Shown here: positions 528-53,567 of the stretch, in pieces
Layout: each line of letters opens with the position of its first letter
Numbering within the stretch: the stretch's first letter is position 1
IMG/VR virus record: IMGVR_UViG_3300008111_000003
Strand: one strand, 5' to 3'
Source of the DNA: a virus
DNA length: 64,000 nucleotides
Program-made: the position numbers and the translations under genes
The notes under the pieces: generated by a model
Seen by the model: the letters and a program-made list of their open reading frames with translations, nothing else
The model's database searches: none
What the model was told of the DNA's origin: nothing

Positions 528-934
528 TAATTAAAGCTTTAGATGGTCAATCACATAATTGGCTATTAACCGGCAATATGGCTAAAGGTAAAGTTAGCAA
601 TAGGTCTTCTTTGCATCTGTCTGCAAGAAAACTGATTACTGGCCACTTCCCCACTCTGCAACTACTAGAAGAAGTGCCGATACCATTGAGGAAGGGCGAG
701 GTATTATATTTAGATTTTTATATACCATTAAAGAAAATTTGCATAGAAGTTCATGGTGAACAACATTTTAAATTTGTACCATTCTACCATTCTACTATGC
801 TTAATTTTTTAAAAGCACAAAAAAGAGATAGAGAAAAACAAGAGTGGTGTGAAATAAATGGAATCAAGTATATTGGTCTTAGATTTGATCAAAAAGAAAA
901 TGAATGGAGCGAGTTAATCCAAAATGAGTGCTAA
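524..934 (+). CDS. Vsr/DUF559-like PD-(D/E)XK endonuclease
   Basis: YLDFYIP..KICIEVHGEQHF..RDREKQEWC pattern; ATGA overlap with recA stop. Confidence 0.65.
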   Translation: MIIKALDGQSHNWLLTGNMAKGKVSNRSSLHLSARKLITGHFPTLQLLEEVPIPLRKGEVLYLDFYIPLKKICIEVHGEQHFKFVPFYHSTMLNFLKAQKRDREKQEWCEINGIKYIGLRFDQKENEWSELIQNEC

Positions 935-1418
935 AACATCCAAAGAGGAACTAAAGTATTGGGACGATATACTTGACGAATATGAGAATTCTATAGGACT
1001 AGGTATATATTCAGATGTTCATGGATTCACAGAAAGTGAACTAAATACATACTTCACCATGAATAGAGATGCTATAGAGAAATTAGATCCGGAAGATTGT
1101 GCTCAAATATCTTATAGATTAGCACAGTACGCATTCTTCTTACAGAGAACTCTTAATAGAGAAATTGCCAGACACAACTGGGCAGAAGAAAATATTAAAG
1201 AGACCATAGCAGATGAAATAAATAATTATAAAGGATACGGCTTTGTAGAAAAATCTATACAAGCCATTAAACATAATGATAAAGCCATCTCATTGAATAA
1301 GATTAAAAAGTATGCTCAACAGCGCATGGATAGACTATCATATTTAGCTAATAGCGTTAAAAATCTTTCAGATATTATGCTTTCTGTACAAAGGACAAAG
1401 GTGAAACATGGGTCTTGA
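924..1418 (+). CDS. Helical hypothetical protein (possibly UvsY-like recombination mediator)
   Basis: Coiled-coil-like sequence between recA and helicase; function inferred from context only. Confidence 0.4.
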   Translation: MSAKTSKEELKYWDDILDEYENSIGLGIYSDVHGFTESELNTYFTMNRDAIEKLDPEDCAQISYRLAQYAFFLQRTLNREIARHNWAEENIKETIADEINNYKGYGFVEKSIQAIKHNDKAISLNKIKKYAQQRMDRLSYLANSVKNLSDIMLSVQRTKVKHGS

Positions 1419-1773
1419 TAATGATGATATCAAAGCATTAATAGCAATATTACAAAAGGGTTTAACTAATGATGATGAAAATGAGGTAGAGACACCAAAG
1501 CGTAAAACTCAGCGATCATCCAAACCACGACAAACCAAAAAGAAAAGCACAAACAAATTTGATAACATGCCAGAATTTGGTATGTGTAAAGAGGATGTGG
1601 AGATAGATCGTAAGATCAAAAAACCACCACCATCACTAAGAAATAGGCCGTTTGAACTTGTTAAGGTTCAATGTAGAATTTGTGGTAAAAAAGATAAGGT
1701 TGCACCAAGTATTCTTGAGTCTATGGAAATAGAGAGATACAAGTGTAACAAGTGCGCAACAGGAGCAGGCTGA
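1408..1773 (+). CDS. Hypothetical protein with C-terminal zinc ribbon
   Basis: CRICG...CNKC; overlaps both neighbours. Confidence 0.6.
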   Translation: MGLDNDDIKALIAILQKGLTNDDENEVETPKRKTQRSSKPRQTKKKSTNKFDNMPEFGMCKEDVEIDRKIKKPPPSLRNRPFELVKVQCRICGKKDKVAPSILESMEIERYKCNKCATGAG

Positions 1774-3230
1774 TGATTTTGTGTGATCCCGCCGCAGAAA
1801 GAGCGGTATTGGCTGGTATTTGTTCGTATGGTGAAAATGCTTATTTGGACATTGCTGATATATTACAGGAATCATCTTTTACTGTAGATAGCAATACCAT
1901 TATCTTCAAATGCTTAAAGCATCTTTGCGAGAATAATCACGGAACTATTGATATAGCCTCCATCTATTCTGTGGCTCAGGATTTGGGAGTTTCTCATGTT
2001 CTTTCAAAGAAAGAGGAAACCCAGCATCTTAAGGCTATTATGGATTTTCCTGTTAGTCTTGATAATGTTAGAAAATTTGCGGCCAAGATAAGAAAGCTAG
2101 AAATAGCTAGACTATTAAGAAAGCAGCTAGAACTAGCTCAGGATAAAATCTTAGAGATAACAGGATCAGAACCAATATCTTCGATTATAGGATTGGCCGA
2201 AGATAGTATTTTTAATTTCACTTCGCTGCTAAATGATAGTGATAGTGGTCCAGAACAAATATCTTCTTCTATTGATGATTATATTAAACATCTAGAAGAA
2301 ACTAAATTGGATCAGGTGGGTATTCCAACAGGATTTCCAATATACGATCAGGCTATTGGTGGTGGACTAAGACGAGGAACAATCAATGTAATTGGTGCTA
2401 GACCAAAAGTTGGTAAAACTCTTATGTCTGATAATATGAGTAAAAACATAGCAGCATTAGGTATTCCCATATTAAATATGGATACCGAAATGAATAAAGA
2501 AGATCATATTCATAGACTATTGGCTATGATGAGCGAAGTTGATATTAACTCTATCGAAACTGGTAAATTTTCTGAATCTGTTGACAAAAAGAATAAGATA
2601 CTATCCTCAGCAGAAAAACTAAAAGGTATGAATATATACCACAAAAGTATTGCTGGTATGCCTTTTGAGGATCAATTAGCTATAATGAGAAGATGGCTAG
2701 TTAAAGAGGTAGGACTAAATGATGATGGTACAGCCAAAGAGTGTGTGATATTTTATGATTATCTAAAGCTTATGGATAGTGCTGGTATAAGCCAAGATCT
2801 TAAAGAATATCAGGTTTTAGGATTTATGATGACCAGTTTGCATAATTTTGCTGTTAGATACAAAGTGCCAATCGTAGCTTTTATACAGTTGAATAGAGAT
2901 GGTATTTCAAAAGAAAGTACCGACTCTGCTAGTGGTTCAGATCGAATCATTTGGTTGTGTAGCAATTTCTCAATTTTTAAACGCAAGAGCGATGAAGAAA
3001 TAGCAGAAGATGGGCCAGATGGTGGTAATCGTAAACTAATACCATTAGTATGCAGACACGGTGGCGGTCTGGACGATAACGATTATATCAACTGTCATAT
3101 GAAGGGATGGTGTGCCCAAATTAAAGAGGGAAGAACGCACTTGGAAATTAAGAATAATGTCAAATCTAATGAAGAAGGTTTTATTGTAGATGAAAACGAT
3201 AGCGATGAAGACCAAATCCCATTTGAATGA
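1773..3230 (+). CDS. dnaB: DnaB-like replicative helicase
   Basis: AERAVLAGI N-domain, GIPTGF, Walker A GARPKVGKT, YDYLKLM, QLNR; AGGAG before ATG 1773. Confidence 0.92.
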   Translation: MILCDPAAERAVLAGICSYGENAYLDIADILQESSFTVDSNTIIFKCLKHLCENNHGTIDIASIYSVAQDLGVSHVLSKKEETQHLKAIMDFPVSLDNVRKFAAKIRKLEIARLLRKQLELAQDKILEITGSEPISSIIGLAEDSIFNFTSLLNDSDSGPEQISSSIDDYIKHLEETKLDQVGIPTGFPIYDQAIGGGLRRGTINVIGARPKVGKTLMSDNMSKNIAALGIPILNMDTEMNKEDHIHRLLAMMSEVDINSIETGKFSESVDKKNKILSSAEKLKGMNIYHKSIAGMPFEDQLAIMRRWLVKEVGLNDDGTAKECVIFYDYLKLMDSAGISQDLKEYQVLGFMMTSLHNFAVRYKVPIVAFIQLNRDGISKESTDSASGSDRIIWLCSNFSIFKRKSDEEIAEDGPDGGNRKLIPLVCRHGGGLDDNDYINCHMKGWCAQIKEGRTHLEIKNNVKSNEEGFIVDENDSDEDQIPFE

Positions 3231-4350
3231 TCAATTAAAACTAAAGCTGATTTGTGATCAGGTTTGTGACAATATTGAGCCACTATTAGATTCTTTTGGA
3301 ATTGATTATAGAACTCAATCCAAGATGATCGTTATGGCCTGTCCCATACATGGTGGAGATAATGCGTCCGCACTTAACTTGTATCCAGAAGGAGACAGTT
3401 ATAGAGGAAACTGGAAGTGTAGAACGCACAATTGTGAAAAAACATTCAAAGGATCAGTACTAGGATTTATTAGAGGCATATTATCTCGTCATCATCATGG
3501 ATGGAATAAAGATGGTGATAAGATGTGCTCTTTTAATGAGGCTGTTGATTATGCCCTAAAATTTATTAAACAAGACCTATCCGATCTAAAAATATCCAAA
3601 ACAGAAAGAGAAAAGAAACAATTCACGAATGTTGTTAACTATCTCAACAAGACAGAAGAAAAAAGCACAAGCAGAGTAACCAGAAGTCAGATAGTCAAAT
3701 CTTTAATTATTCCTGCTCAATACTATTTAGATCGAAAATATTCACCAGAAATACTAACCAAATATGATGTTGGTTTATGTAGTAAATCTGGTAAAGAGAT
3801 GAGTGATAGAATTGTTGTGCCAATATATGACAATAACTATAGTTATATGGTAGGATGTACCGGACGAAGCATCCACGAAAAATGTCCAAATTGCAAAGGA
3901 TTTCATAATCCCAATGGTGGGTGTCCATTACCCGACGATGTTTGGAAATTTTGTAAATGGAAACATAACACAGACTTTAAAAGCCAGAATCATCTTTACA
4001 ACTTCTGGTTTGCTAAAGAACATATTCTTAAAACATCAACAGTTATTGTGGTAGAAAGTCCTGGTAATGTTTGGAGATTAGAAGAAAACGGTATTCATAA
4101 TAGTGTAGCTATTTTTGGATCATCCTTGAGCGATAGACAAAAGATCATATTAGATTCATCTGGAGCTATGAATATTGTGATACTAACAGACAACGATGAA
4201 GCAGGAATAAAGGCCGCTGAACAAATTAAGAATAAGTGCCAGAATACTTATAGAATTTTTATACCCAAAATATCAAAGAGCGATGTGGGAGAAATGAATA
4301 GTGAAGAAATTAATGATCAAATTAAGAATTATCTAGGAAAAATAGTATGA
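3190..4350 (+). CDS. dnaG: DnaG-like DNA primase
   Basis: CHC2 zinc finger CPIH...WKCRTHNC; RIVVPI..GCTGR; TOPRIM VVES..LTDNDEAG; true start may be 3205. Confidence 0.85.
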   Translation: MKTIAMKTKSHLNDQLKLKLICDQVCDNIEPLLDSFGIDYRTQSKMIVMACPIHGGDNASALNLYPEGDSYRGNWKCRTHNCEKTFKGSVLGFIRGILSRHHHGWNKDGDKMCSFNEAVDYALKFIKQDLSDLKISKTEREKKQFTNVVNYLNKTEEKSTSRVTRSQIVKSLIIPAQYYLDRKYSPEILTKYDVGLCSKSGKEMSDRIVVPIYDNNYSYMVGCTGRSIHEKCPNCKGFHNPNGGCPLPDDVWKFCKWKHNTDFKSQNHLYNFWFAKEHILKTSTVIVVESPGNVWRLEENGIHNSVAIFGSSLSDRQKIILDSSGAMNIVILTDNDEAGIKAAEQIKNKCQNTYRIFIPKISKSDVGEMNSEEINDQIKNYLGKIV

Positions 4351-4985
4351 CAACAATTTTAGCATTCTCTGGACGAAAACAATCTGGTAAAAGTACATCT
4401 GGAGAATATGTACAGGATCTTATCCGTTCTATAAATCCAAAAATCAGCATTAAAACCTATAGCTTTGCTGATCCTCTAAAAAGAAATATTTGTATAGACT
4501 TATTAGGATTAACTGAGCAGCAGTGCTATGGTAGTGATGAAGATAAGAATAGTCTGACCAATATTCGCTGGAAAGATATGCCAGACTATGATATATCATG
4601 GACTTATGATTCTGAATATGATTCTAGCGGATTTATGACAGCAAGACAAGTTATGGAATTTGTGGGTACAAGAATTTTTAGAAAAATGAAAAATAATATA
4701 TGGGTAGATGCTACTATTAAACAAATCCATAAAGACAATATCGATATGGCTCTACTATTAGATAATAGATTTCCAAATGAAGTTGATGCTGTTTTAGACT
4801 CTGGTGGATTTGTGGTTAGATTAGCGAGAGATCCTTTTCATTCTTGGTCAGAACCTGAGATTGCTCTGGATCCAGTTAAGTACGATTGGTCGAAATTTAG
4901 TTGTGTAATAGACAACACAAACTGCTCAATAGACGAAAAGAATAATCTTATCAAACAATTTCTTATTAATCAAGGAATACTTTAG
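4347..4985 (+). CDS. Deoxynucleoside monophosphate kinase
   Basis: P-loop SGRKQSGKST, SFADPLK, TARQVMEFVGT, DNRFPNE as in phage dNMP kinases. Confidence 0.8.
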   Translation: MTTILAFSGRKQSGKSTSGEYVQDLIRSINPKISIKTYSFADPLKRNICIDLLGLTEQQCYGSDEDKNSLTNIRWKDMPDYDISWTYDSEYDSSGFMTARQVMEFVGTRIFRKMKNNIWVDATIKQIHKDNIDMALLLDNRFPNEVDAVLDSGGFVVRLARDPFHSWSEPEIALDPVKYDWSKFSCVIDNTNCSIDEKNNLIKQFLINQGIL

Positions 4986-5004
4986 TGTGTCTTAAATAAT
5001 ATTC

Positions 5005-5012
5005 GGTGTATC
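5005..5012 (+). promoter_or_regulatory. Putative phage (late) promoter motif GGTGTATC
   Basis: GTGTA motif recurring in intergenic spaces before endonuclease and virion genes. Confidence 0.5.
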
Positions 5013-5041
5013 TAAGATTAGACATATAAGGAGAAAAATTT

Positions 5042-5569
5042 ATGCCAGCTAAAAAATATTTTATAACTAAAGAATATTTAGAAGAACATTATACCAAACA
5101 AAAAAAGAGCACAACCACCATAGCAAAAGAATTAGGACTTAAATCCACAAATACGCTTAAAAGATTATTAAAAAAATACGATATACCCAACAATAATAAT
5201 AGGGCTGGTAGGCCAGTAAAAACCACACAAAAATTTGGTGAAATACACAAATCATATATCTGTACATTAAGATTACGAGCAAAAAGATTAGATTATGAAT
5301 TCAATTTAAATGGAAAATTTTTATGGGAATTATTTCTAAAACAAAATAGAAAATGTGCTTTATCTGGCATAGAAATAGGATTTCCTCAAGCCTGGGGCGT
5401 TAAAAGTAAAACAGATATTACTGCGTCTCTAGATAGAATAGATAGTAATAAAGGATATACAAAAGATAATGTGCAATGGGTACACAAGCATATAAACACT
5501 ATGAAAATGCATATGACAGATATGGAGTTTATAAGTATCTGTAAGAAAGTAGCGGAATACAACAAGTGA
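5042..5569 (+). CDS. Free-standing HNH/His-Me homing endonuclease with N-terminal HTH-like region
   Basis: KQNRKCALSG..SLDRIDSNKGYTKDNVQWVHKHINTMK; AAGGAG RBS. Confidence 0.75.
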   Translation: MPAKKYFITKEYLEEHYTKQKKSTTTIAKELGLKSTNTLKRLLKKYDIPNNNNRAGRPVKTTQKFGEIHKSYICTLRLRAKRLDYEFNLNGKFLWELFLKQNRKCALSGIEIGFPQAWGVKSKTDITASLDRIDSNKGYTKDNVQWVHKHINTMKMHMTDMEFISICKKVAEYNK

Positions 5570-6609
5570 TTATAACCTATCTTCGAAGTTCAAGTTTTAA
5601 CACACACTGTTTCTGTGCTCAACAGTATTTTCTTGAATATGTACTAGGCATTAGATCCCCATCAGGAATTAAGGCCGATAAGGGCACTATAGTACATAAA
5701 GCTTTAGAGATTTTAGCCTATATTAAGCTAACATTACAAAATAAAGAAAATATTTATACTGATGATATTGTTGGTCCTATTAATGTTCATGACTATGATT
5801 TAGACCGAATTATTGATGCTGTTTATCAATACTATACGTCTCAGTTTAAACATCACTCATGGTCGGCCAAAGATTTAAAAGATTGTCGTCTATGGGTCAA
5901 CAAAGCGATCACAGATCACAACGGAACCTTCGATCCACGCAATAGAAACATACTTCAACCAGAGCAACATTTTGATATAGTTATAGATAAACCTTGGGCC
6001 TATTATTCGTACAAAACACAATCAGGAATTTTAGATGGTAATTTGGCGATAAAAGGAACTATTGATCTTATTACGGAAGTGGACGAAAATACCATAGAAA
6101 TTGTTGACTGGAAAACTGGCCGCAGACTAGACTGGGCAACTGGTCAAGAAAAAACTTTGGAAAAACTTCAAAATGATCCTCAGTTAAGAATATACCACTA
6201 TGCTGTGCAAAAATTGTATCCGAAAATGGATCATATTATTTTTACCATCAATTTTATTAATGATGGCGGAGCATTTAGTGTTTGTTATGATAAGAGCGAT
6301 TTGCCAAAAACAGAAAATATGATTAGACAAAAGTTTGAAACCATACGAGATACCACAAGACCATCACTTAACAAAAGTTGGAAATGCACCAAATTATGTC
6401 ATTTTGGAAAAACCACTTTTGAGAATAGTCATATTCTACCCATCATAGAATATAGAGATAATCAAATATGTGCCAAAGATACTTTCATGACCAAGTGTGA
6501 ACAAATCAAACACGATATTGATCTGAAAGGCATTAACAATGTGATTGACCAACACACTTTTCCTGGATATACTGTTGGTAAGTACAAAGCACCCGGAAGC
6601 GCAGAATGA
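5566..6609 (+). CDS. PD-(D/E)XK (RecB/Cas4-like) nuclease
   Basis: GTIVHKALE, PEQHF, KGTIDLI..EIVDWKTG, QLRIY, Cys cluster (C..CTKLCHF..C). Confidence 0.8.
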   Translation: MIITYLRSSSFNTHCFCAQQYFLEYVLGIRSPSGIKADKGTIVHKALEILAYIKLTLQNKENIYTDDIVGPINVHDYDLDRIIDAVYQYYTSQFKHHSWSAKDLKDCRLWVNKAITDHNGTFDPRNRNILQPEQHFDIVIDKPWAYYSYKTQSGILDGNLAIKGTIDLITEVDENTIEIVDWKTGRRLDWATGQEKTLEKLQNDPQLRIYHYAVQKLYPKMDHIIFTINFINDGGAFSVCYDKSDLPKTENMIRQKFETIRDTTRPSLNKSWKCTKLCHFGKTTFENSHILPIIEYRDNQICAKDTFMTKCEQIKHDIDLKGINNVIDQHTFPGYTVGKYKAPGSAE

Positions 6610-6646: not shown

Positions 6647-6654
6647 TGTGTATT
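6647..6654 (+). promoter_or_regulatory. Putative phage (late) promoter motif TGTGTATT
   Basis: GTGTA motif followed by TACTATGA, as at 8870. Confidence 0.5.
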
Positions 6655-6696
6655 CATACTATGAGTGATAATGCAAATTGAGTATAAGGAAATTTT

Positions 6697-7416
6697 ATGA
6701 GAGGCAGAAAAGTAGACAATGGTCGTTTTGTAAAATGTTACGATAATAAATTAACAAAAAAATATCTAGAAAAAGAATATCCAAAACAAGGAGCCTATAA
6801 AATAGCTAAAAGTTTGGGGATTCACGTTAAAACCGTATATAATTATTTAGGATATTACAAAATACCAAGAACTAGACAAGAAAATAATAAAATTAAAAAA
6901 GGCCAAATTTTTGGATTGTTAACTTTAGTAGAACCTGTTGGAAAATTAAAAAACGGCACAATTACATGGAAGTGTATGTGTGACTGCGGAAGCGAGACAA
7001 TAGTACCATCCTCTAGGATAAAAATAGGCAAGGTTAAAAGTTGTGGCTGTTTGAACAAAATTAGTGGCTCAAAAAGATGGAATTGGAAGGGGTATTGTGG
7101 TATTAGTGGAAGCAGATTTTGTGAGATTAGATTAAGAGCCAAAAAGAAAAAATGGGATTTCAACCTAACTCCAAAATTCTTATGGGAACTATTTCAACAA
7201 CAAAACAAGAGATGTGCTATAACTAATGAAATTATAGATTTGAATATTGATGGATCATTAGATAGGATAGACAGTTCAAAAGGATATGTAAAAAATAACG
7301 TTTGGTGGGTTAAAAAAGATATAAATAAGATGAAACTAGACTTTCCATTAAATTTGTTTATCGAATTATGTGAGAAGGTTGTAGCCAATAAGGAGAATAT
7401 AAGAAATGGGCGTTGA
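6697..7416 (+). CDS. Free-standing HNH/His-Me homing endonuclease
   Basis: WKCMCDCG..VKSCGCL zinc-binding module; QQNKRCAIT..SLDRIDSSKGYVKNNVWWVKKDINKMK; related to 5042-5569. Confidence 0.78.
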   Translation: MRGRKVDNGRFVKCYDNKLTKKYLEKEYPKQGAYKIAKSLGIHVKTVYNYLGYYKIPRTRQENNKIKKGQIFGLLTLVEPVGKLKNGTITWKCMCDCGSETIVPSSRIKIGKVKSCGCLNKISGSKRWNWKGYCGISGSRFCEIRLRAKKKKWDFNLTPKFLWELFQQQNKRCAITNEIIDLNIDGSLDRIDSSKGYVKNNVWWVKKDINKMKLDFPLNLFIELCEKVVANKENIRNGR

Positions 7417-7457: not shown

Positions 7458-8843
7458 ATGTTTTCACTTTTGGATGGACTATCCAAACCAGAGCAAATAG
7501 CAGAAAGATGCAAAGAGATCGGAGCATCTGCTTGTGCGTTAACAGATCATGGTAACATAGCAGGAACCATCAAGTTTTATACTGCTATGAAAAAAGCTGG
7601 ACTAAAGCCTATACTTGGATGTGAACTTTACATTTGTAGTCAAAACCCAAAAATCAAAGAAAAAGATAACAAAAAACTAAGTCATTTTCTGGTATTGGCT
7701 AAGAATTATTCAGGATGGAGAAATCTTATCAAGATAGTTTCATCATCCAATAATCCAGAATATTATTATCATAAGCCGAGATTGGATTTACCAACACTAA
7801 AAGATCTTCATTCAGGGGATTTGATCGGAATAACTGGTCATCTTGGATCAACACTAGCAGATCAAATACTAGACGGGGATGCTCTTAGAGATGATTGGCA
7901 AAATATAGGAGTACAACATATATCTTATCTTAAGACTATATTTGGTGATCATTTGTTTTTGGAAGCTCAATTAATAGATAAAGATAATCTGCCAATCCAA
8001 GAAATCCTCACAAACTGCATCAGAAAATTGGGACAATTAACCAATACTAAAGTTATATGTACTCCTGATGCTCATTATTGTCGCAAAGAGGATGCTGTTG
8101 ATCAGCGAGTATTATTGTGCAACAATCTTAAGATTACATTCTCTGATATTAGTCGTAAAATCATAAACGATCAAGATATTCCTATGGGGTGCTTTTTTAC
8201 ATCAGATAATTATCATATTCCATCTCAGGAGGAAATGAAGAACATACACACAGAAGAAGAAATCAATAATACAAATTTTGTGTGTGATTTAGTGGAAGAA
8301 TATAACATACTAAGTAAACCTAAATTACCATTATTTAAATGTCCACCAAATTTCTCTCAGGATGAATATTTAAGAGAACTGTGTAGAAACGGATGGAGAG
8401 ATAAAATAGCAAATGTTGTACCTAAAGAAGATCAACAACCATACTTGGATCGTATCAAATACGAACTAGAGGTTTTACAGGGTGCTGGGCTGAGTAGTTA
8501 TTTTTTAATAGTACAAGATATTGTGAACTATGTTAAAAGAGAAGGATGGCTTCCGGGACCGGGACGAGGTTGTTTTATACCAGAAACAAGAGTTAAAATG
8601 GCTTCTGGTGAATTGATGCCTATCTATAATATAGAAATAGGAGATCAAGTAATAGATGCTTTTGGAAATAAACAAAGAGTCTATGATATAATGAGATATG
8701 AAATAGATGAAGAAATACTGGAAATAGAATTAGAAAATGGTAAAATCATAAGATGTACAAAAGATCATAGATTTTTAACACTAAATAGGGGTTGGGTTGA
8801 AGCCCAGTATCTATCAGAAAATGATGATTTGGCCAAAATATAA
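7458..8843 (+). CDS. dnaE: DNA polymerase III alpha (DnaE) part 1: PHP domain plus start of polymerase, fused to N-terminal split-intein half
   Basis: FSLLDG, ALTDHGN, PILGCE, TPDAHY, YFLIVQDIV, GPGRG followed by intein block A CFIPET. Confidence 0.92.
   Translation: MFSLLDGLSKPEQIAERCKEIGASACALTDHGNIAGTIKFYTAMKKAGLKPILGCELYICSQNPKIKEKDNKKLSHFLVLAKNYSGWRNLIKIVSSSNNPEYYYHKPRLDLPTLKDLHSGDLIGITGHLGSTLADQILDGDALRDDWQNIGVQHISYLKTIFGDHLFLEAQLIDKDNLPIQEILTNCIRKLGQLTNTKVICTPDAHYCRKEDAVDQRVLLCNNLKITFSDISRKIINDQDIPMGCFFTSDNYHIPSQEEMKNIHTEEEINNTNFVCDLVEEYNILSKPKLPLFKCPPNFSQDEYLRELCRNGWRDKIANVVPKEDQQPYLDRIKYELEVLQGAGLSSYFLIVQDIVNYVKREGWLPGPGRGCFIPETRVKMASGELMPIYNIEIGDQVIDAFGNKQRVYDIMRYEIDEEILEIELENGKIIRCTKDHRFLTLNRGWVEAQYLSENDDLAKI
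8571..8840 (+). mobile_element. Split intein N-fragment (90 aa)
   Basis: Begins at Cys after GPGRG; block A CFIPETRV, block B IRCTKDHRFLT..GWVEA..L; ends at TAATAA. Confidence 0.9.
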
Positions 8844-8845
8844 TA

Positions 8846-8877
8846 AGAACCTCTTCCTGGACCACTTTTGGTGTATC
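8846..8877. promoter_or_regulatory. Inverted copy of the intein-less homing site abutting a GGTGTATC promoter motif (putative operator)
   Basis: Reverse complement of 8846-8866 is AGT GGT CCA GGA AGA GGT TCT (SGPGRGS); GGTGTATC at 8870-8877. Confidence 0.55.
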
Positions 8878-8900
8878 CTACTATGAAAGGACAATCTTGT

Positions 8901-9719
8901 ATGGAATATATAGCATTTAAATCTTTACAAGACAATAATTTTGAATACAGGGGATTAAGCAATAAACCTATTAAAGACATATGTATAAAATGCAATAAAA
9001 CTTTTGAATACGCTAAACTTAAGAAATTTATTAGGAGCAGAGTAAACATCCCAAAAATATATTGGTGTCAATGTCAGAAATGTTTTTTGCGATATAGAAC
9101 TATTGATAATTCAGACTGGATAGAAAAAAATAGGAAAGCACAACTTATAGCGCAAAATAAAGAAGAACAAAAGAAAAAGAACGCGGAGGCAGTATCAAAA
9201 TCTTGGACAAGAACAAGAAAAAATAAAGCTTCTGAATATCTTAAAGAAAGATGGGTTAATGATGAGGCTTTTAAAAATAAGGCTACTCTTAATTTAACCA
9301 ATAATAGAAGATATAATTTTACAAACGGAATTGCTACTGGGGGTCTTAGAGGATTATATAACGATATATACTATGATAGTGCGCTAGAACTATCTTTTAT
9401 ATTGTGGTGTGAATACAATAGTATGCCGATTAAAAGATATGATCAAGATTCTATTAAGTATGTAGATGAAAATACTATCGAAAGAGAATATTTTCCTGAT
9501 TTTATTATCAATAACACAACTATTGTCGAAATAAAAGGAAAAGGAATTTGGTATAATCGACACTTTGAACGCAATAAATTAAAAATGATAGCAGCAAAGA
9601 CCAAATTTAATGCAAAGTATTGCATATATTACGACTGGGATGAACAAACAAAATTATTTTATCGAAAGGCTAGAAAATTACATCATGAAAATAAAAAGAA
9701 AAACGTCGCTATCATATAA
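8901..9719 (+). CDS. Free-standing endonuclease (TnsA-like PD-(D/E)XK C-domain) between split-intein halves
   Basis: YYDSALEL..IKY..YFPDFII..IVEIKG; N-terminal CxxC pairs and basic helical region; AAGGA RBS favours ATG 8901 over 8868. Confidence 0.75.
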   Translation: MEYIAFKSLQDNNFEYRGLSNKPIKDICIKCNKTFEYAKLKKFIRSRVNIPKIYWCQCQKCFLRYRTIDNSDWIEKNRKAQLIAQNKEEQKKKNAEAVSKSWTRTRKNKASEYLKERWVNDEAFKNKATLNLTNNRRYNFTNGIATGGLRGLYNDIYYDSALELSFILWCEYNSMPIKRYDQDSIKYVDENTIEREYFPDFIINNTTIVEIKGKGIWYNRHFERNKLKMIAAKTKFNAKYCIYYDWDEQTKLFYRKARKLHHENKKKNVAII

Positions 9720-9789
9720 GGGTACTGTGTGCGATTTGTCTGTAACCAATACAGCATCTTATAATGTTGAAGGGATTGGAGTACACAAT
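9685..9789 (+). mobile_element. Split intein C-fragment (35 aa)
   Basis: Basic N-terminus, block F VCDLSV, block G YNVEGIGVHN followed by Ser+1. Confidence 0.9.
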
Positions 9790-10518
9790 AGTGCGGCGGG
9801 GTGTTTGGTATCCTATCTCATCGGCATAACTAATATTGATCCTATAAAATATAGTCTGCTTTTTGAAAGATTCTATAATGAGGGTCGTAACACAGCAGAC
9901 AATATTTCCATGCCAGATATTGATGTAGATATACCTATCGAAAAGCGAGAAATGGTTATTCAATATATCAAAGACAAATATGGTTCGGACAAAGTTTCTC
10001 AAATGGTTACTTTCAATACGATCAAGGGTAGGGGCGCACTAAAAGACGTATTAAGAGTATATGGTAATATTACATTTGAAGAAATGAATAAGATAACCAA
10101 AAATATCCCCGATGAGTCTAAGATTGCCGATGATCTTCAAGAGATGAAAGAAGAAACTGGCGAAGCATCCATCGTTCGATGGGCTTTGGAAAACGATAAT
10201 GATAAGCTTAAAGAATGGTGCTTTATTGATGAAAAAGGACAACTACAAGGCCTCTTGTCAAAAAGGTTTGAACAGGCTATTAGACTAGAGGGCACCAAGT
10301 CAAATCAGTCCAAACATGCTGCTGGTATTGCTATCAGTAGTGAACCATTAAATGAATTATGTCCTATGGTTTATGATAGTAAGAATGATCAGTTAATAGC
10401 AGGAATGGAGATGCAAGACTTGGAAAGCATAGGAATTATTAAGTTTGATATTCTTGGTGTTGCTCTTCTTGATAAAGTGATGACAATCAGAGACCTTTTA
10501 AATGAAGGAGTTCAATAA
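9685..10518 (+). CDS. dnaE: DnaE part 2: C-terminal split-intein half fused to polymerase catalytic core
   Basis: MKIKRK..VHN then SAAGCLVSYLIGIT..DPI..LLFERF..MPDIDVD..KHAAG..KFDILG; start set at Met26 of the tracked ORF. Confidence 0.9.
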   Translation: MKIKRKTSLSYKGTVCDLSVTNTASYNVEGIGVHNSAAGCLVSYLIGITNIDPIKYSLLFERFYNEGRNTADNISMPDIDVDIPIEKREMVIQYIKDKYGSDKVSQMVTFNTIKGRGALKDVLRVYGNITFEEMNKITKNIPDESKIADDLQEMKEETGEASIVRWALENDNDKLKEWCFIDEKGQLQGLLSKRFEQAIRLEGTKSNQSKHAAGIAISSEPLNELCPMVYDSKNDQLIAGMEMQDLESIGIIKFDILGVALLDKVMTIRDLLNEGVQ

Positions 10519-41182: not shown

Positions 41183-44100
41183 TCAATCTGGTCTTAATTC
41201 AATCATTTGTTGTAATACCGCTTCACTCTCAGCAGCCAATCTACTTTGAGCATCTGCTAAACGAGTAGCCGCAGCTGCTGCTTCTGCTGAACCTTTTGGT
41301 GCTGATTCTAGTTGTTTTTGTGCCTCAGTTATGGTTTGACCAATTTTCATTGCCGATTCTCTTCTAGCAACTAGTCCAGTTTGTGCTTCTGAAACTTTAC
41401 CCTTGAAGAAAGTTTGATTTTCATATGTCTTTTTACCTAATTTTTGAGCTAAATCTAGTTTAATAGCAGATTCGGAGGTTCCAGTCTGTTGAGCTTTATA
41501 TTTGAAAAATTCTTCGTCCGCATACGATTGTTGAGCAGCTTTGCTGTTGGTGAAGTCGAATTCATCTGGTGGGCCGCCACCGCCGCCCCCACCACTCTTA
41601 AATAAAGACTTTTCTCCTGTTTGGAGAGTTGATTGAACATATTCTGAGGCTACTGATTTTTGTGTTCTAGCTTGTTTAATCAAATTAGTTTTATCTTTTT
41701 GAGCTTGATTTAAAGACTCTTCTGTTTGTAGAGACTGTAGTATAATGCTTTCTTGCTGTTGTACTAATTCCTTTTGTCTTTTATGTGCTTCTCTCAATTC
41801 TCCTGATACTTTTTGACCAGCAGAATTTTGTGCTTGTAGTTGTTTAATCGAATTTGTCTCTTTGAGTATTTCAGCACTTAGTCTGCTTGTTTCAGCTTTT
41901 AATCCAATAAGCGTGGAGGTTATTTCTTTTATAACTTGTGACATTTTTTTGATATTATTCTGTAAATCTGGATCACCAGATGTGGCAGATATAGACGCAA
42001 CATTGGCAGCAACACTTTTACGAGTAACAGACGCAGCCTTCTGTTGTGGAGCCATAGATTTTTTTACATCAATGAAAGGATCTATATCAGATGCTTCTAG
42101 TCCTCCAACAGTATGAGTTCCTAACTCATGTAAATGATCGGCTAATAAAGCCATGCCTTTTTTAGAATCAGTTGTTGAAGTTATGATAGCTCTTACTTCG
42201 GGGCTTGCTTTGGCAAAAAATTCTGCAAATAGTTCTTTACCAGTACTCAAATATCCTGCAATATCCGAAGAACTTTTACCCGCTGCTTTCCATTCATCTT
42301 CCATATCTTTTCTAATTTTATCAACCAAGGCAAACTGAAATGTTCCTTCCATTTCACTTGCAAATGCTTCACCTCCACCAAGCGCAACATCAGCAAGATG
42401 TCCAGTTTCGTGAGCAACTGTTTCTGTTGTTGCTCCTCCTTTTTCACCAGTAATTTGCAAACCAATAGCAGAGGCTTTAACGTTTTGGATAGCCTGACCT
42501 CTGGTAGTTTTTTCAAATGCTTTATTAGACCTAACATCGGGTGCAGATAGGGTTTCTCCAGCTTTTATGTCTTTTATACCTTTGAATTTACTACGAATAA
42601 TATTTGCTATATTTTCAGACATATCGCCAAGAACATTTTCTAAAACAGCTTCAGCTTCTTGTACGCTTTCTAAAACTTTACCTTGTCCTCTTACTATATC
42701 TTTTTTTGCTTGTCCGCCAACTTTAAATCCCCTTATTGCACTAATTATACCACCACTATTATATTTAGAATTCAAAGCATCAACAGCTTTTTTTCTAATA
42801 ACATAACCACCAACCGGTAAATCAATTGGTCCAATACTATCGCTAGTTCCACTACCTGGACCTTTGAATATTCCTCCCCCAACAGCAAAACCATTCATTC
42901 CGTTACGATCAGCCTGATTTATCTTATTAAGTTTAGAGTATCCAATTTTCTTGGCTTGAGACGGAGGAATAAATGCCTCTCCATTACTAACCATAGCTGG
43001 TATAGTACCACCAGATGCAAAACTAGATAAAGGACCGCCAGCAGCCATTCTAACTCCAGATAATCTAGCAGCAATACCCTCTATAGCATGACCTACATTA
43101 TCTGAGTTGAGAGTTCTTTTAGCCTGTGTGAATACGCCCGATGGAACACCAAATAAAGCAGCAAGATCTGGTGGTAATCCTCCTTCAAAATCTACTGCTC
43201 TATTTCTTTCATTGTATTCTCCTCCGGCAGCCCCTAATAGTGCTAATATAGCTTCTAATTGATATCCTTCGGCATTGGATCTACCGAGTCTATTAAGATC
43301 CTGATCTGTTAAATTAACCAAAAGTCTGTCCGGTAATAGTTCGCTAGCTGCTTCTTGTAAATTAGCAAAATCTTTTGTTCTAAGTTTAGCTAATACTTCT
43401 TCGGATTTAGCTCCACTTAAAGAGCCTATAGATACACTAAAAGGAACACCCCCTACCTTTTTATAAACTTGTCTAGAAGCAGCCTTATAGTCAGAAGCTA
43501 TGCCAACAACAGCTATAGATCGAGCAAGTCTTTTTTCTTCTTCTGTTAGATTAAATGGGTCTGCCTCGTCTACTTCTTGTCGTCCAGATAAATATTCTTT
43601 TATGATATTTTCTCTCAACGATGCTAATGTTTTGATTGTTGTTTCATTATTTCCAACAGCTTTACCAACTATAGTACCAGCTCTTAATTGAGTTGGTGTT
43701 AAAGCTTTTGATAAACTAATTGTTCTACCGCCTATTACTAAGCTACCACTATCAATTGCTAAATCTAATTCTCTAGCCCTTTTTGTAAGAATTTGAGACC
43801 ATGTTTCTCCTTGTGAAGATGTTCTGCCTTTGGGGAATGGCCCTCCAACTAATTGTTGAGGGGTTAGTGATCCACCTCCGGCGAATCCTTGAACTAGACC
43901 ACCTTTTAATATTTGATTAATTGTCTCTGCAAAATGTGTGGCGTGGGCGGGTTTAGCTGCTGTTCCACCATTAATAAAATCATCAAAGTATTTTAGTGCG
44001 GTTTGAGCTTTTCCAGCTTTTTGAGTTTCGTTTTCTTTCTTCAACGATTCAATATATGCTGGAATAGCCGCTTTTATCTTCTCTGCTGCTGCTGGTGGTA

Positions 44101-53560: not shown

Positions 53561-53567
53561 ATACACC
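53561..53567 (-). promoter_or_regulatory. Putative late promoter motif GGTGTAT
   Basis: Immediately after the capsid terminator, before the adaptor gene. Confidence 0.55.

Follow-up and report, generated by a model that had tools for sequence, protein, structure and literature searches.

A candidate operator resembling half of the dnaE homing site beside the promoter of a split-intein homing endonuclease in a viral genome

Why would a sequence resembling the uninterrupted target of a homing endonuclease lie beside the promoter of that endonuclease's own gene? The question is raised by a 64,000-nucleotide stretch of viral DNA (IMG/VR virus record IMGVR_UViG_3300008111_000003; hereafter, the window) in which dnaE, the gene for Pol III alpha, is found in pieces: an ORF encoding the N-extein and IntN, a free-standing nuclease ORF, and IntC joined to the C-extein. 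The first ORF (7458 to 8843) encodes a PHP domain and the start of the polymerase NTPase/palm domain, followed by IntN. Its N-extein portion (7458 to 8570, plus strand), delimited with the ORF list and Pfam matches to PHP (3e-31) and DNA_pol3_alpha (2.5e-12), ends in WLPGPGRG, and the resident N-extein half of the homing site, GGACCGGGACGAGGT, occupies 8556 to 8570 (+), directly 5' of intein Cys1. IntN (8571 to 8843, +; 90 amino acids, CFIPETRV...DDLAKI, with Intein_splicing and Hint matches) includes a TAA stop at 8841 to 8843. The free-standing homing endonuclease (8901 to 9719, +; 272 amino acids) shares a 35-nt overlap at its 3' end with IntC (9685 to 9789, +; 35 amino acids, MKIKRK...GVHN), identified from the ORF list and junction comparison. 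The C-extein (9790 to 10518, +), placed by the position of the junction, starts with SAAGCLVSYLIG and supplies the remaining NTPase/palm domain (DNA_pol3_alpha, 1.8e-54).

This is the layout of a fractured gene, in which IntN and IntC lie on separate ORFs around an endonuclease within one host gene, and the same layout was found in L001 to L037 and L141 to L151. Split inteins around a free-standing endonuclease gene, with dnaE among the hosts, have been described previously (Dassa et al. 2009, PMC2677866); the order of N-extein-IntN, endonuclease ORF, and IntC-C-extein and the overlap of the endonuclease 3' end with IntC are the same there as in the window, and the three dnaE insertion points of that study are stated to differ from one another. 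A blastn search of positions 8300 to 10000 against a phage GenBank collection returned no match.

A 57-nt spacer separates the IntN stop from the nuclease ATG and has the sequence TAA GAACCTCTTCCTGGACCACT TTT GGTGTATCC TACTATG AAAGGA CAATCTTGT ATG. A second TAA (8844 to 8846) shares its last base with the first base of the element considered here, which starts 3 nt past the IntN stop and occupies 8846 to 8866 (minus strand). On the plus strand this stretch is AGAACCTCTTCCTGGACCACT, and on the minus strand it reads AGT GGT CCA GGA AGA GGT TCT, or SGPGRGS in translation. A TTT at 8867 to 8869 separates the element from GGTGTATC (8870 to 8877), within a promoter -10-like region, GGTGTATCCTACTAT (8870 to 8884, +), and a Shine-Dalgarno (SD)-like AAAGGA, read from the sequence, follows at 8886 to 8891 (+), 9 nt 5' of the ATG. 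A preliminary description of this DNA had given the minus-strand reading 3 nt before GGTGTATC, exactly as we find it, and had stated that its codons are unlike those of the resident exteins (GGA CCG GGA CGA GGT, the intein, then AGT GCG GCG GGG); indeed, identity to the phage's own exteins is only 13/18, while some foreign intein-less alleles match at 15/15. As argued below, we lean modestly toward the view that the element is an autorepression operator of the I-TevI type, bound by the neighboring endonuclease.

The putative binding protein has a modular architecture. An AlphaFold model (pLDDT 85) consists of a zinc ribbon and helical module (residues 1 to 133), a disordered linker (134 to 148), and a C-terminal nuclease domain. 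The N-terminal zinc ribbon has the form CxxC...CxxC, and residues invariant in the alignment are C28, C31, C58, and C61, as well as E163, P199-D200, and E210-x-K212. An E...PD...(D/E)xK motif on a predicted restriction-endonuclease-like fold points to a PD-(D/E)XK nuclease resembling TnsA and T7 endonuclease I. Foldseek matched the C-terminal domain to TnsA chains 9bw1_M, 1t0f_B, and 1f1z_A with a probability of 1.0 and an rmsd of ~4 Å, at E values of only 0.016 to 0.07. Weak Phage_endo_I / TnsA profile matches agree with this fold, and a PDB sequence search with the endonuclease profile gave marginal matches only. With its PD...ExK, TnsA-like character, the nuclease differs from the GIY-YIG and Vsr-like endonucleases described for fractured genes by Dassa et al. 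2009 (PMC2677866). With its separate DNA-binding module, a modular enzyme of this kind could bind a site and leave it uncut, in the manner of I-TevI.

To what extent does the element resemble the true target? We took the homing site from the intein insertion point and built a weight matrix solely from 60 unique intein-less dnaE alleles of related phages. Eighty related dnaE loci were gathered from viral contigs, out of more than 500 dnaE relatives, and 72 of the 80 are intein-less, with GPGRG|SAAGCLVSYLIG uninterrupted. When an 18-nt matrix (positions -15 to +3) was run over both strands of the whole window, the top match was the resident junction (8556 to 8573, 29.6 bits), and the 18-nt core of the element (8846 to 8863), which corresponds to target positions -15 to +3, scored 27.1 bits. 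The next match, a coding GPGSGT at 42845 to 42862 (-), reached 24.6 bits, all others lay at or below ~10 bits, and the maximum in shuffled windows was 17.4 bits. Given that ceiling and the scarcity of matches in the window, a 27.1-bit match inside a 57-nt spacer is a ~1e-3 event, with conservation in relatives not counted. In the six-frame translation of the 64 kb, GPGRG occurs twice, at the true junction and in the element. The preliminary description had proposed comparison with intein-less dnaE alleles of related phages, and this comparison turned out in its favor: the element scores 27 to 29 bits on the intein-less-allele matrix, about the same as the resident junction, and the alleles of L130, L133, L134, and L136, GGTCCAGGAAGAGGT, are identical to it at 15/15 positions. 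Its Ser codon, TCN, is that of about one-quarter of natural intein-less alleles, and the half common to the element, the L130 intein-less site, and the resident junction is GGNCCNGGNMGNGGT. As a separate observation, the GPGSGT match (GGT CCA GGT AGT GGA ACT), the only other strong one in the window, lies in a 2020-amino-acid tape-measure-like ORF; it is probably due to chance and is a possible off-target half-site for the endonuclease.

The same description had made its reading depend on presence of the element at homologous loci. A scan of viral contigs with the single protein gave nothing, and an alignment-based scan found relatives; 71 nuclease homologues were present in a large protein collection, and their loci were collected. 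All of the ~60 endonuclease relatives, down to 27 to 36% identity, occupy the same dnaE split-intein site, which, together with the 72 of 80 alleles that are intein-less, fits homing at this site. The element is kept in ~30 non-redundant fractured-dnaE loci whose endonucleases are 47 to 83% identical, although these loci share ancestry, so that conservation counts lineages rather than independent inventions. Spacers of the close family follow the order IntN stop, a few A residues, AGAACCYCKNCC(NNGAC), TTTT, GGTGTA(TAAT), 10 to 20 nt, SD, and ATG. In most close-family loci, the element is the best or second-best off-junction matrix match (within 2 to 8 kb, both strands) and lies 5 to 12 nt past the IntN stop. 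It scores 28.7 bits in L001, 21.9 in L012, 20.7 in L145, 18.1 in L032, 16.3 in L148, 12.9 in L146, and 5 to 11 in many others, and it ranks lower with the 18-nt matrix in L015, L020, L022, L031, and L035. Target likeness extends over 9 to 12 nt only (GGN MGR GGT T) in many loci, and one subfamily has T for G at an informative position (CCA TGT CGA GGT). Elsewhere in the 64 kb, the consensus AGAACCYCKNCC is found only at the true junction, on the other strand and with one mismatch, and its restriction to the element and the junction indicates that it is not a general promoter motif. No significant junction-like sequence was found in the spacers of a distant endonuclease clade (L045 to L060, 27 to 36% identity); direct junction-like strings seen by eye in L055 and L060 were not significant (p 0.06 to 0.95). 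Altogether, comparison supports the interpretation of the element as a genuine, conserved look-alike of the dnaE homing site that is specific to the endonuclease locus.

Several loci depart from the typical arrangement. In L013, L014, L025, and L030 (~2241 to 2500), the IntN stop is still followed by the element and the GGGTGTATAGG motif, after which a 71-amino-acid ORF of no known family (MMRTKRLYQIIYRHEQY...) intervenes before the endonuclease; the stop of this ORF overlaps the endonuclease ATG. In L043 (365 to 1187), the endonuclease frame is split into two overlapping ORFs and is probably a pseudogene; informative positions of the element in this locus have eroded (GGTCCATCAAAAGGTTCT, 5 bits). 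A spacer is lacking altogether in L141 and L142, where the endonuclease start codon falls inside the end of IntN (L141 690 to 720, GAT GAC ATT AAA GAA ATA TAA in one frame and ATG ACA TTA AAG... in the other), and promoter, hairpin, and element are all missing. Translation of the endonuclease appears to be coupled instead in these two loci.

The likeness is kept across loci for the N-extein half only, as GGN CCN GGN MGR GGT. Positions +1 to +3 of the element are mostly TCT and elsewhere TCC, TTC, TGT, TGC, TAT, or ATT, with TGT/TGC, the intein Cys codon, in L016, L145, and L146. Beyond +3, the fit of positions +4 to +9 to the intein-less C-extein is no better than that to the intein start (4.3 versus 4.9 matches of 9). 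A C-extein-half matrix (GGN TGT TTR GTN TCN TAT) found nothing in the spacer of any locus, which makes the likeness specific to the N-extein half, and the C-extein half (GCN GCN GGN TGT...) is absent beside the element. A likeness of TTTGGTGTATCC to the C-extein sequence TGTTTGGTATCC was considered and set aside, since the C-half matrix finds no spacer match; this stretch is most likely the -10 motif only. The element had been said to span the junction GPGRG|S and so to preserve the intein-less allele. Only the N-extein half is clearly copied; neither of these two points is established, as +1 to +3 vary and +4 to +9 are ambiguous.

We then considered how the copies have diverged. The column profile of the element resembles that of the target with a cosine of 0.80, compared with 0.45 ± 0.08 for permuted columns, and 18 of 24 differences between nearest-neighbor elements fall at seven target-degenerate positions, where 39% are expected (binomial p = 4e-4); the 18-mers in both tests were chosen by the matrix, which biases them toward it, and MAFFT run without the matrix aligns the same columns. 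The "Arg codon" of the element is AGA, AGG, CGA, CGG, or TGA, and the third positions of its "Gly" and "Pro" codons change without apparent restriction; G8, G11, G13, and G14 hardly vary. Such a pattern is explained by a reader that evolved to ignore the wobble positions of its true target, and it is not explained by a peptide, RNA pairing, or gene conversion. Promiscuity of homing endonucleases at target wobble positions has been documented for I-AniI (PMC3943268), in which the free positions are likewise the codon-degenerate positions of the host gene; there, however, the pattern comes from cleavage assays on the target, and here it comes from the evolution of a non-coding target copy.

Alternatively, the element could be a functionless relic of the endonuclease gene's invasion of the intein. 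In the model associated with Loizos/Belfort and Bonocora/Shub, an intron endonuclease is said to cut a target-like site, with its gene being inserted by illegitimate repair. This model predicts target-like sequence at the edge of the inserted gene, and the decay of the likeness to 9 to 12 nt in many loci would suit a relic as well. A neutral leftover should nevertheless have faded, yet the core persists within a scrambled flanking spacer across endonucleases of 47 to 60% identity, informative positions are spared by substitutions, and in-place inversion has not led to loss of the element. Moreover, in L145 and L001 it matches the target better than does the locus's own junction. We consider a relic very unlikely.

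The inversion just mentioned bears on whether the element acts as DNA or as RNA. A 13-mer in L018, TCCATGTCGAGGT (+ strand), matches ACCTCGACATGGA in L024 exactly once it is reverse complemented, and in both loci TATAAT / TATAAA follows the element at a distance of 10 nt. The L018 orientation recurs in L143; the nucleases of L018 and L143 share 59% identity. A long-kept, in-place inversion implies that the element works either way, which points to recognition of duplex DNA by a protein and rules out antisense, guide, anti-SD, and long-range-stem roles. The preliminary description had speculated that the plus-strand RNA, being the complement of the target, might act as antisense or guide RNA against intein-less dnaE or might pair with its own upstream extein mRNA. 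ACCUC does resemble an anti-SD sequence, and minimum-energy folds of L012 and L034 pair part of the element with the SD/start region. However, the Arg codon of the element varies although that of the locus's own junction is AGA almost everywhere, and this lack of covariation counts against both long-range RNA pairing and gene conversion with the N-junction. That the element outscores its own junction on the matrix in L001, L035, and L145 likewise makes it less likely that the element pairs with the resident sequence or was copied from it; in L145 the N-extein reads GPSRG (GGGCCTTCACGCGGA, 10.3 bits), while the element keeps GGACCGAGACGGGGTTGT (20.7 bits). RNAalifold returned zero conserved pairs over the whole spacer, and variation in CCYC is independent of the SD sequence, which, with the flipped loci, contradicts an anti-SD role. 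A minus-strand ORF or peptide was also rejected, as in-frame TGA or TAG codons occur in L012, L031, L032, and L147 and the minus-strand frame differs between the window and L001. With two loci inverted and neither covariation nor conserved RNA structure found, both of these RNA proposals fall away, and we give hardly any credence to an RNA-level role of whatever kind, be it antisense or guide, N-junction mRNA stem, anti-SD, or minus-strand peptide.

If the element is read as DNA, its position relative to the promoter becomes informative. Some other gene starts in the window are also preceded by GGTGTAT/TGTGTAT and an AT-rich hexamer, for example at 53567(-), 55791(-), and 56640(-), in the first case directly after a terminator-like hairpin. 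A GTGTAT-type motif also precedes both HNH endonuclease genes (5042 to 5569 and 6697 to 7416), at 5005 to 5011 and 6647 to 6664. The motif before the 6697 gene, TGTGTATTCATACTATGA (6647 to 6664), has GTGTAT.C(A)TACTATGA in common with that of the endonuclease, GGTGTATCCTACTATGA (8870 to 8886), and all three selfish nuclease genes may have promoters of a single class. Relatives have GGTGTATAAT at this place in L032 and L036 and TGTGTATAAT in L018; the version in the window is degenerate, with TATCCT or, 9 nt further on, TACTAT. Based on recurrence of the motif before other genes and on the relatives' versions, the 8870 to 8884 region is most likely a promoter -10. A sigma-70 consensus scan found no -35/-10 pair in the spacer. 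Across loci, the element ends 3 to 10 nt before GGTGTAT(AAT), with 17 to 20 nt from GAAC to GGTGTA, and this 3-nt variation in spacing suggests that the element is not a rigid -35 box.

A site for another protein also has to be weighed. The element might be a promoter-proximal site for some other phage or host factor, or an unusual -35-like contact, with its dnaE likeness coincidental: counted from the -10-like motif it occupies about -17 to -40, it has a short core (GAAC...CG), and a coding GPGSGT can reach 24.6 bits by chance. Neither the 17- to 20-nt spacing nor the inversion would be tolerable for a -35 element, however, and none of the other promoter-like sites in the 64 kb has the motif. 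Substitutions that mirror codon degeneracy would be unexpected for such a factor, as would full matches of 15 to 18 nt in the window, L001, L012, L032, and L145. We therefore regard this explanation as quite unlikely. A further inverted pair was seen near one of the promoter-like motifs: AGTGTGTCTTAAA at 4984 to 4996, 8 nt before the GGTGTAT 5' of the first HNH gene, agrees in inverted orientation at 12/13 positions with TTTAACACACACT at 5596 to 5608, 30 nt into the downstream Cas4-like PD-(D/E)XK gene. This pair is one of 14 similar, chance-level inverted pairs nearby, and one close relative was found (L152, 99%).

The spacer also contains a weak counterpart of a hairpin that is better developed in relatives. 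CTTTT at 8865 to 8869 (+) aligns, in single folds and in a fold survey of 28 loci, with the 5' arm of the relatives' ribosome-binding-site (RBS)-sequestering hairpin. In many relatives this hairpin forms by pairing of CTTTT / GTGTAT with the SD region, which leaves the -10 box in the loop. Over the 28 loci, 69% of SD bases are paired, with a mean z of -1.2, and the hairpin is strong in L012, L016, L018, L035, L145, and L150. In the window it is weak (z +0.5 to +1.0), and CTTTT can pair with GAAAG at 8884 to 8888. A hairpin with a late-promoter-like box 5' of fractured-gene endonucleases, and the same in T4/Aeh1, is described in the part of PMC2677866 considered here, so this feature is shared with the fractured genes of that study; that same part mentions no homing-site-like leader element.

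Binding of the element by the endonuclease does not by itself imply repression. The endonuclease may bind there for another purpose, such as retention of the enzyme on donor DNA close to the template for break repair, pairing with the resident half-site so that IntN is looped out, or making a recombination-stimulating nick, and the target likeness is evidence for this just as it is for autorepression. Each genome contains two half-sites around IntN, the resident one being 270 bp upstream; in the window, the two (8556 to 8574 and 8845 to 8863) are 79% complementary. PD-(D/E)XK nucleases are often dimeric, which would suit such an arrangement. Nevertheless, the half-sites are direct in L018 and L143, so no fixed geometry is kept, the element always lies directly 5' of the -10 motif, and in L141 it is lost together with the promoter, which suggests a role linked to the promoter. 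We find binding for one of these other purposes unlikely.

We return, then, to autorepression. The element would be a double-stranded DNA copy of the N-extein half of the site, GGN CCN GGN (A/C)G(A/G) GGT plus one to three bases, that the endonuclease must recognize in intein-less phages, placed 3' of the IntN stop and 5' of the presumed -10 of the promoter that drives the endonuclease gene. The enzyme would bind it, probably through the N-terminal zinc-ribbon and helical module, and would leave it uncut because the C-extein half of the target is missing. Bound enzyme would hinder RNA polymerase so that less endonuclease is made, and the hairpin that hides the RBS in read-through transcripts would work alongside repression. 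Thus, of the target-mimic operator put forward in the preliminary description, the likeness, conservation, locus specificity, adjacency to a promoter-like -10 motif, and wobble-tolerant evolution are supported by comparison. Recognition of the element by the endonuclease, transcriptional repression upon binding, and escape of the element from cleavage are what we infer from these features.

The precedent is the td intron of T4, in which the I-TevI operator, identical to the homing site at 15/20 positions, overlaps the late promoter (Edgell et al.). That operator is bound as tightly as the homing site, is cut ~100-fold less, and represses transcription. Like I-TevI, the system described here has a homing-site-like sequence at the endonuclease's presumed promoter that appears to lack the part of the target needed for cutting, an RBS-sequestering hairpin with a late-type -10 in the loop (strong in relatives and weak in the window), and a modular enzyme with a zinc finger and flexible linker. 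Unlike I-TevI, it involves a split intein rather than a group I intron and a TnsA / endonuclease I-like PD-(D/E)XK nuclease rather than a GIY-YIG or HNH enzyme. In addition, the copy is an N-extein half-site, mostly inverted and found in either orientation, and the element, a predicted operator, is 5' of the -10 rather than over it. In T4, no visible phenotype resulted when the I-TevI operator was deleted (PMC2988022), and the fitness effect of the element, even if real, may accordingly be small.

Other split-intein sites and frames were encountered among the collected loci. L038 has a second, different dnaE split-intein site (ESTYG|C...VHN|CIIFQEQ) with a different zinc-finger endonuclease. 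Just 5' of that ATG, its leader (3354 to 3364) contains AAGGTTCTTGA, an 11/11 direct copy of the N-extein at ~2973 to 2983 (shuffle p ~0.006); the copied stretch lies 14 to 24 nt upstream of that intein's insertion point. This second site is a hint that the design may be general. L039 (3030 to 5188) has another fractured dnaE site (FERFMNPSR|C ... THN|SGFPDID), where L038 has the continuous sequence NPARQGAPDID. This site has an endonuclease of its own, of a multi-zinc-finger PD..ELK type, with an ATG that overlaps the end of IntN. In L057, a 1547-amino-acid stop-free frame runs through the whole dnaE region (835 to 5475), and an endonuclease-like match in another frame (2258 to 3202, open for 315 amino acids) covers the same DNA. 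An unusual overlap or an intein in contiguous form could account for these frames.

Self-limitation by a homing-site look-alike has been shown for I-TevI only and proposed for two more endonucleases, all of T4 introns. The locus described here would present the same design in a different nuclease fold and a different carrier, a split intein in an essential replicase. It also adds comparative evidence beyond T4, in the form of ~30 diverged copies, in-place inversion, loss with the promoter, and substitutions that mirror codon degeneracy. More broadly, it is conceivable, though we hold it only tentatively and think it rather doubtful, that a half-target copy by the endonuclease's own promoter is a general rule across phage homing endonucleases (GIY-YIG, HNH, and PD-(D/E)XK) and carriers (introns, split inteins, and free-standing genes). 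Were this rule true, the copy's substitutions would be a direct evolutionary readout of DNA specificity, because the copy is non-coding, and both targets and specificity profiles of uncharacterized endonucleases would be predictable from metagenomes alone. In a bolder version, joint binding of the two half-sites around IntN could play a part in homing itself. The split DnaE intein (Cys1, Ser+1) and the modular zinc-ribbon PD-(D/E)XK nuclease are of possible use as tools. If confirmed, the operator would offer a sequence-only route to the targets and specificity of uncharacterized endonucleases, and it would suggest a convergent pressure on selfish nucleases to throttle themselves.
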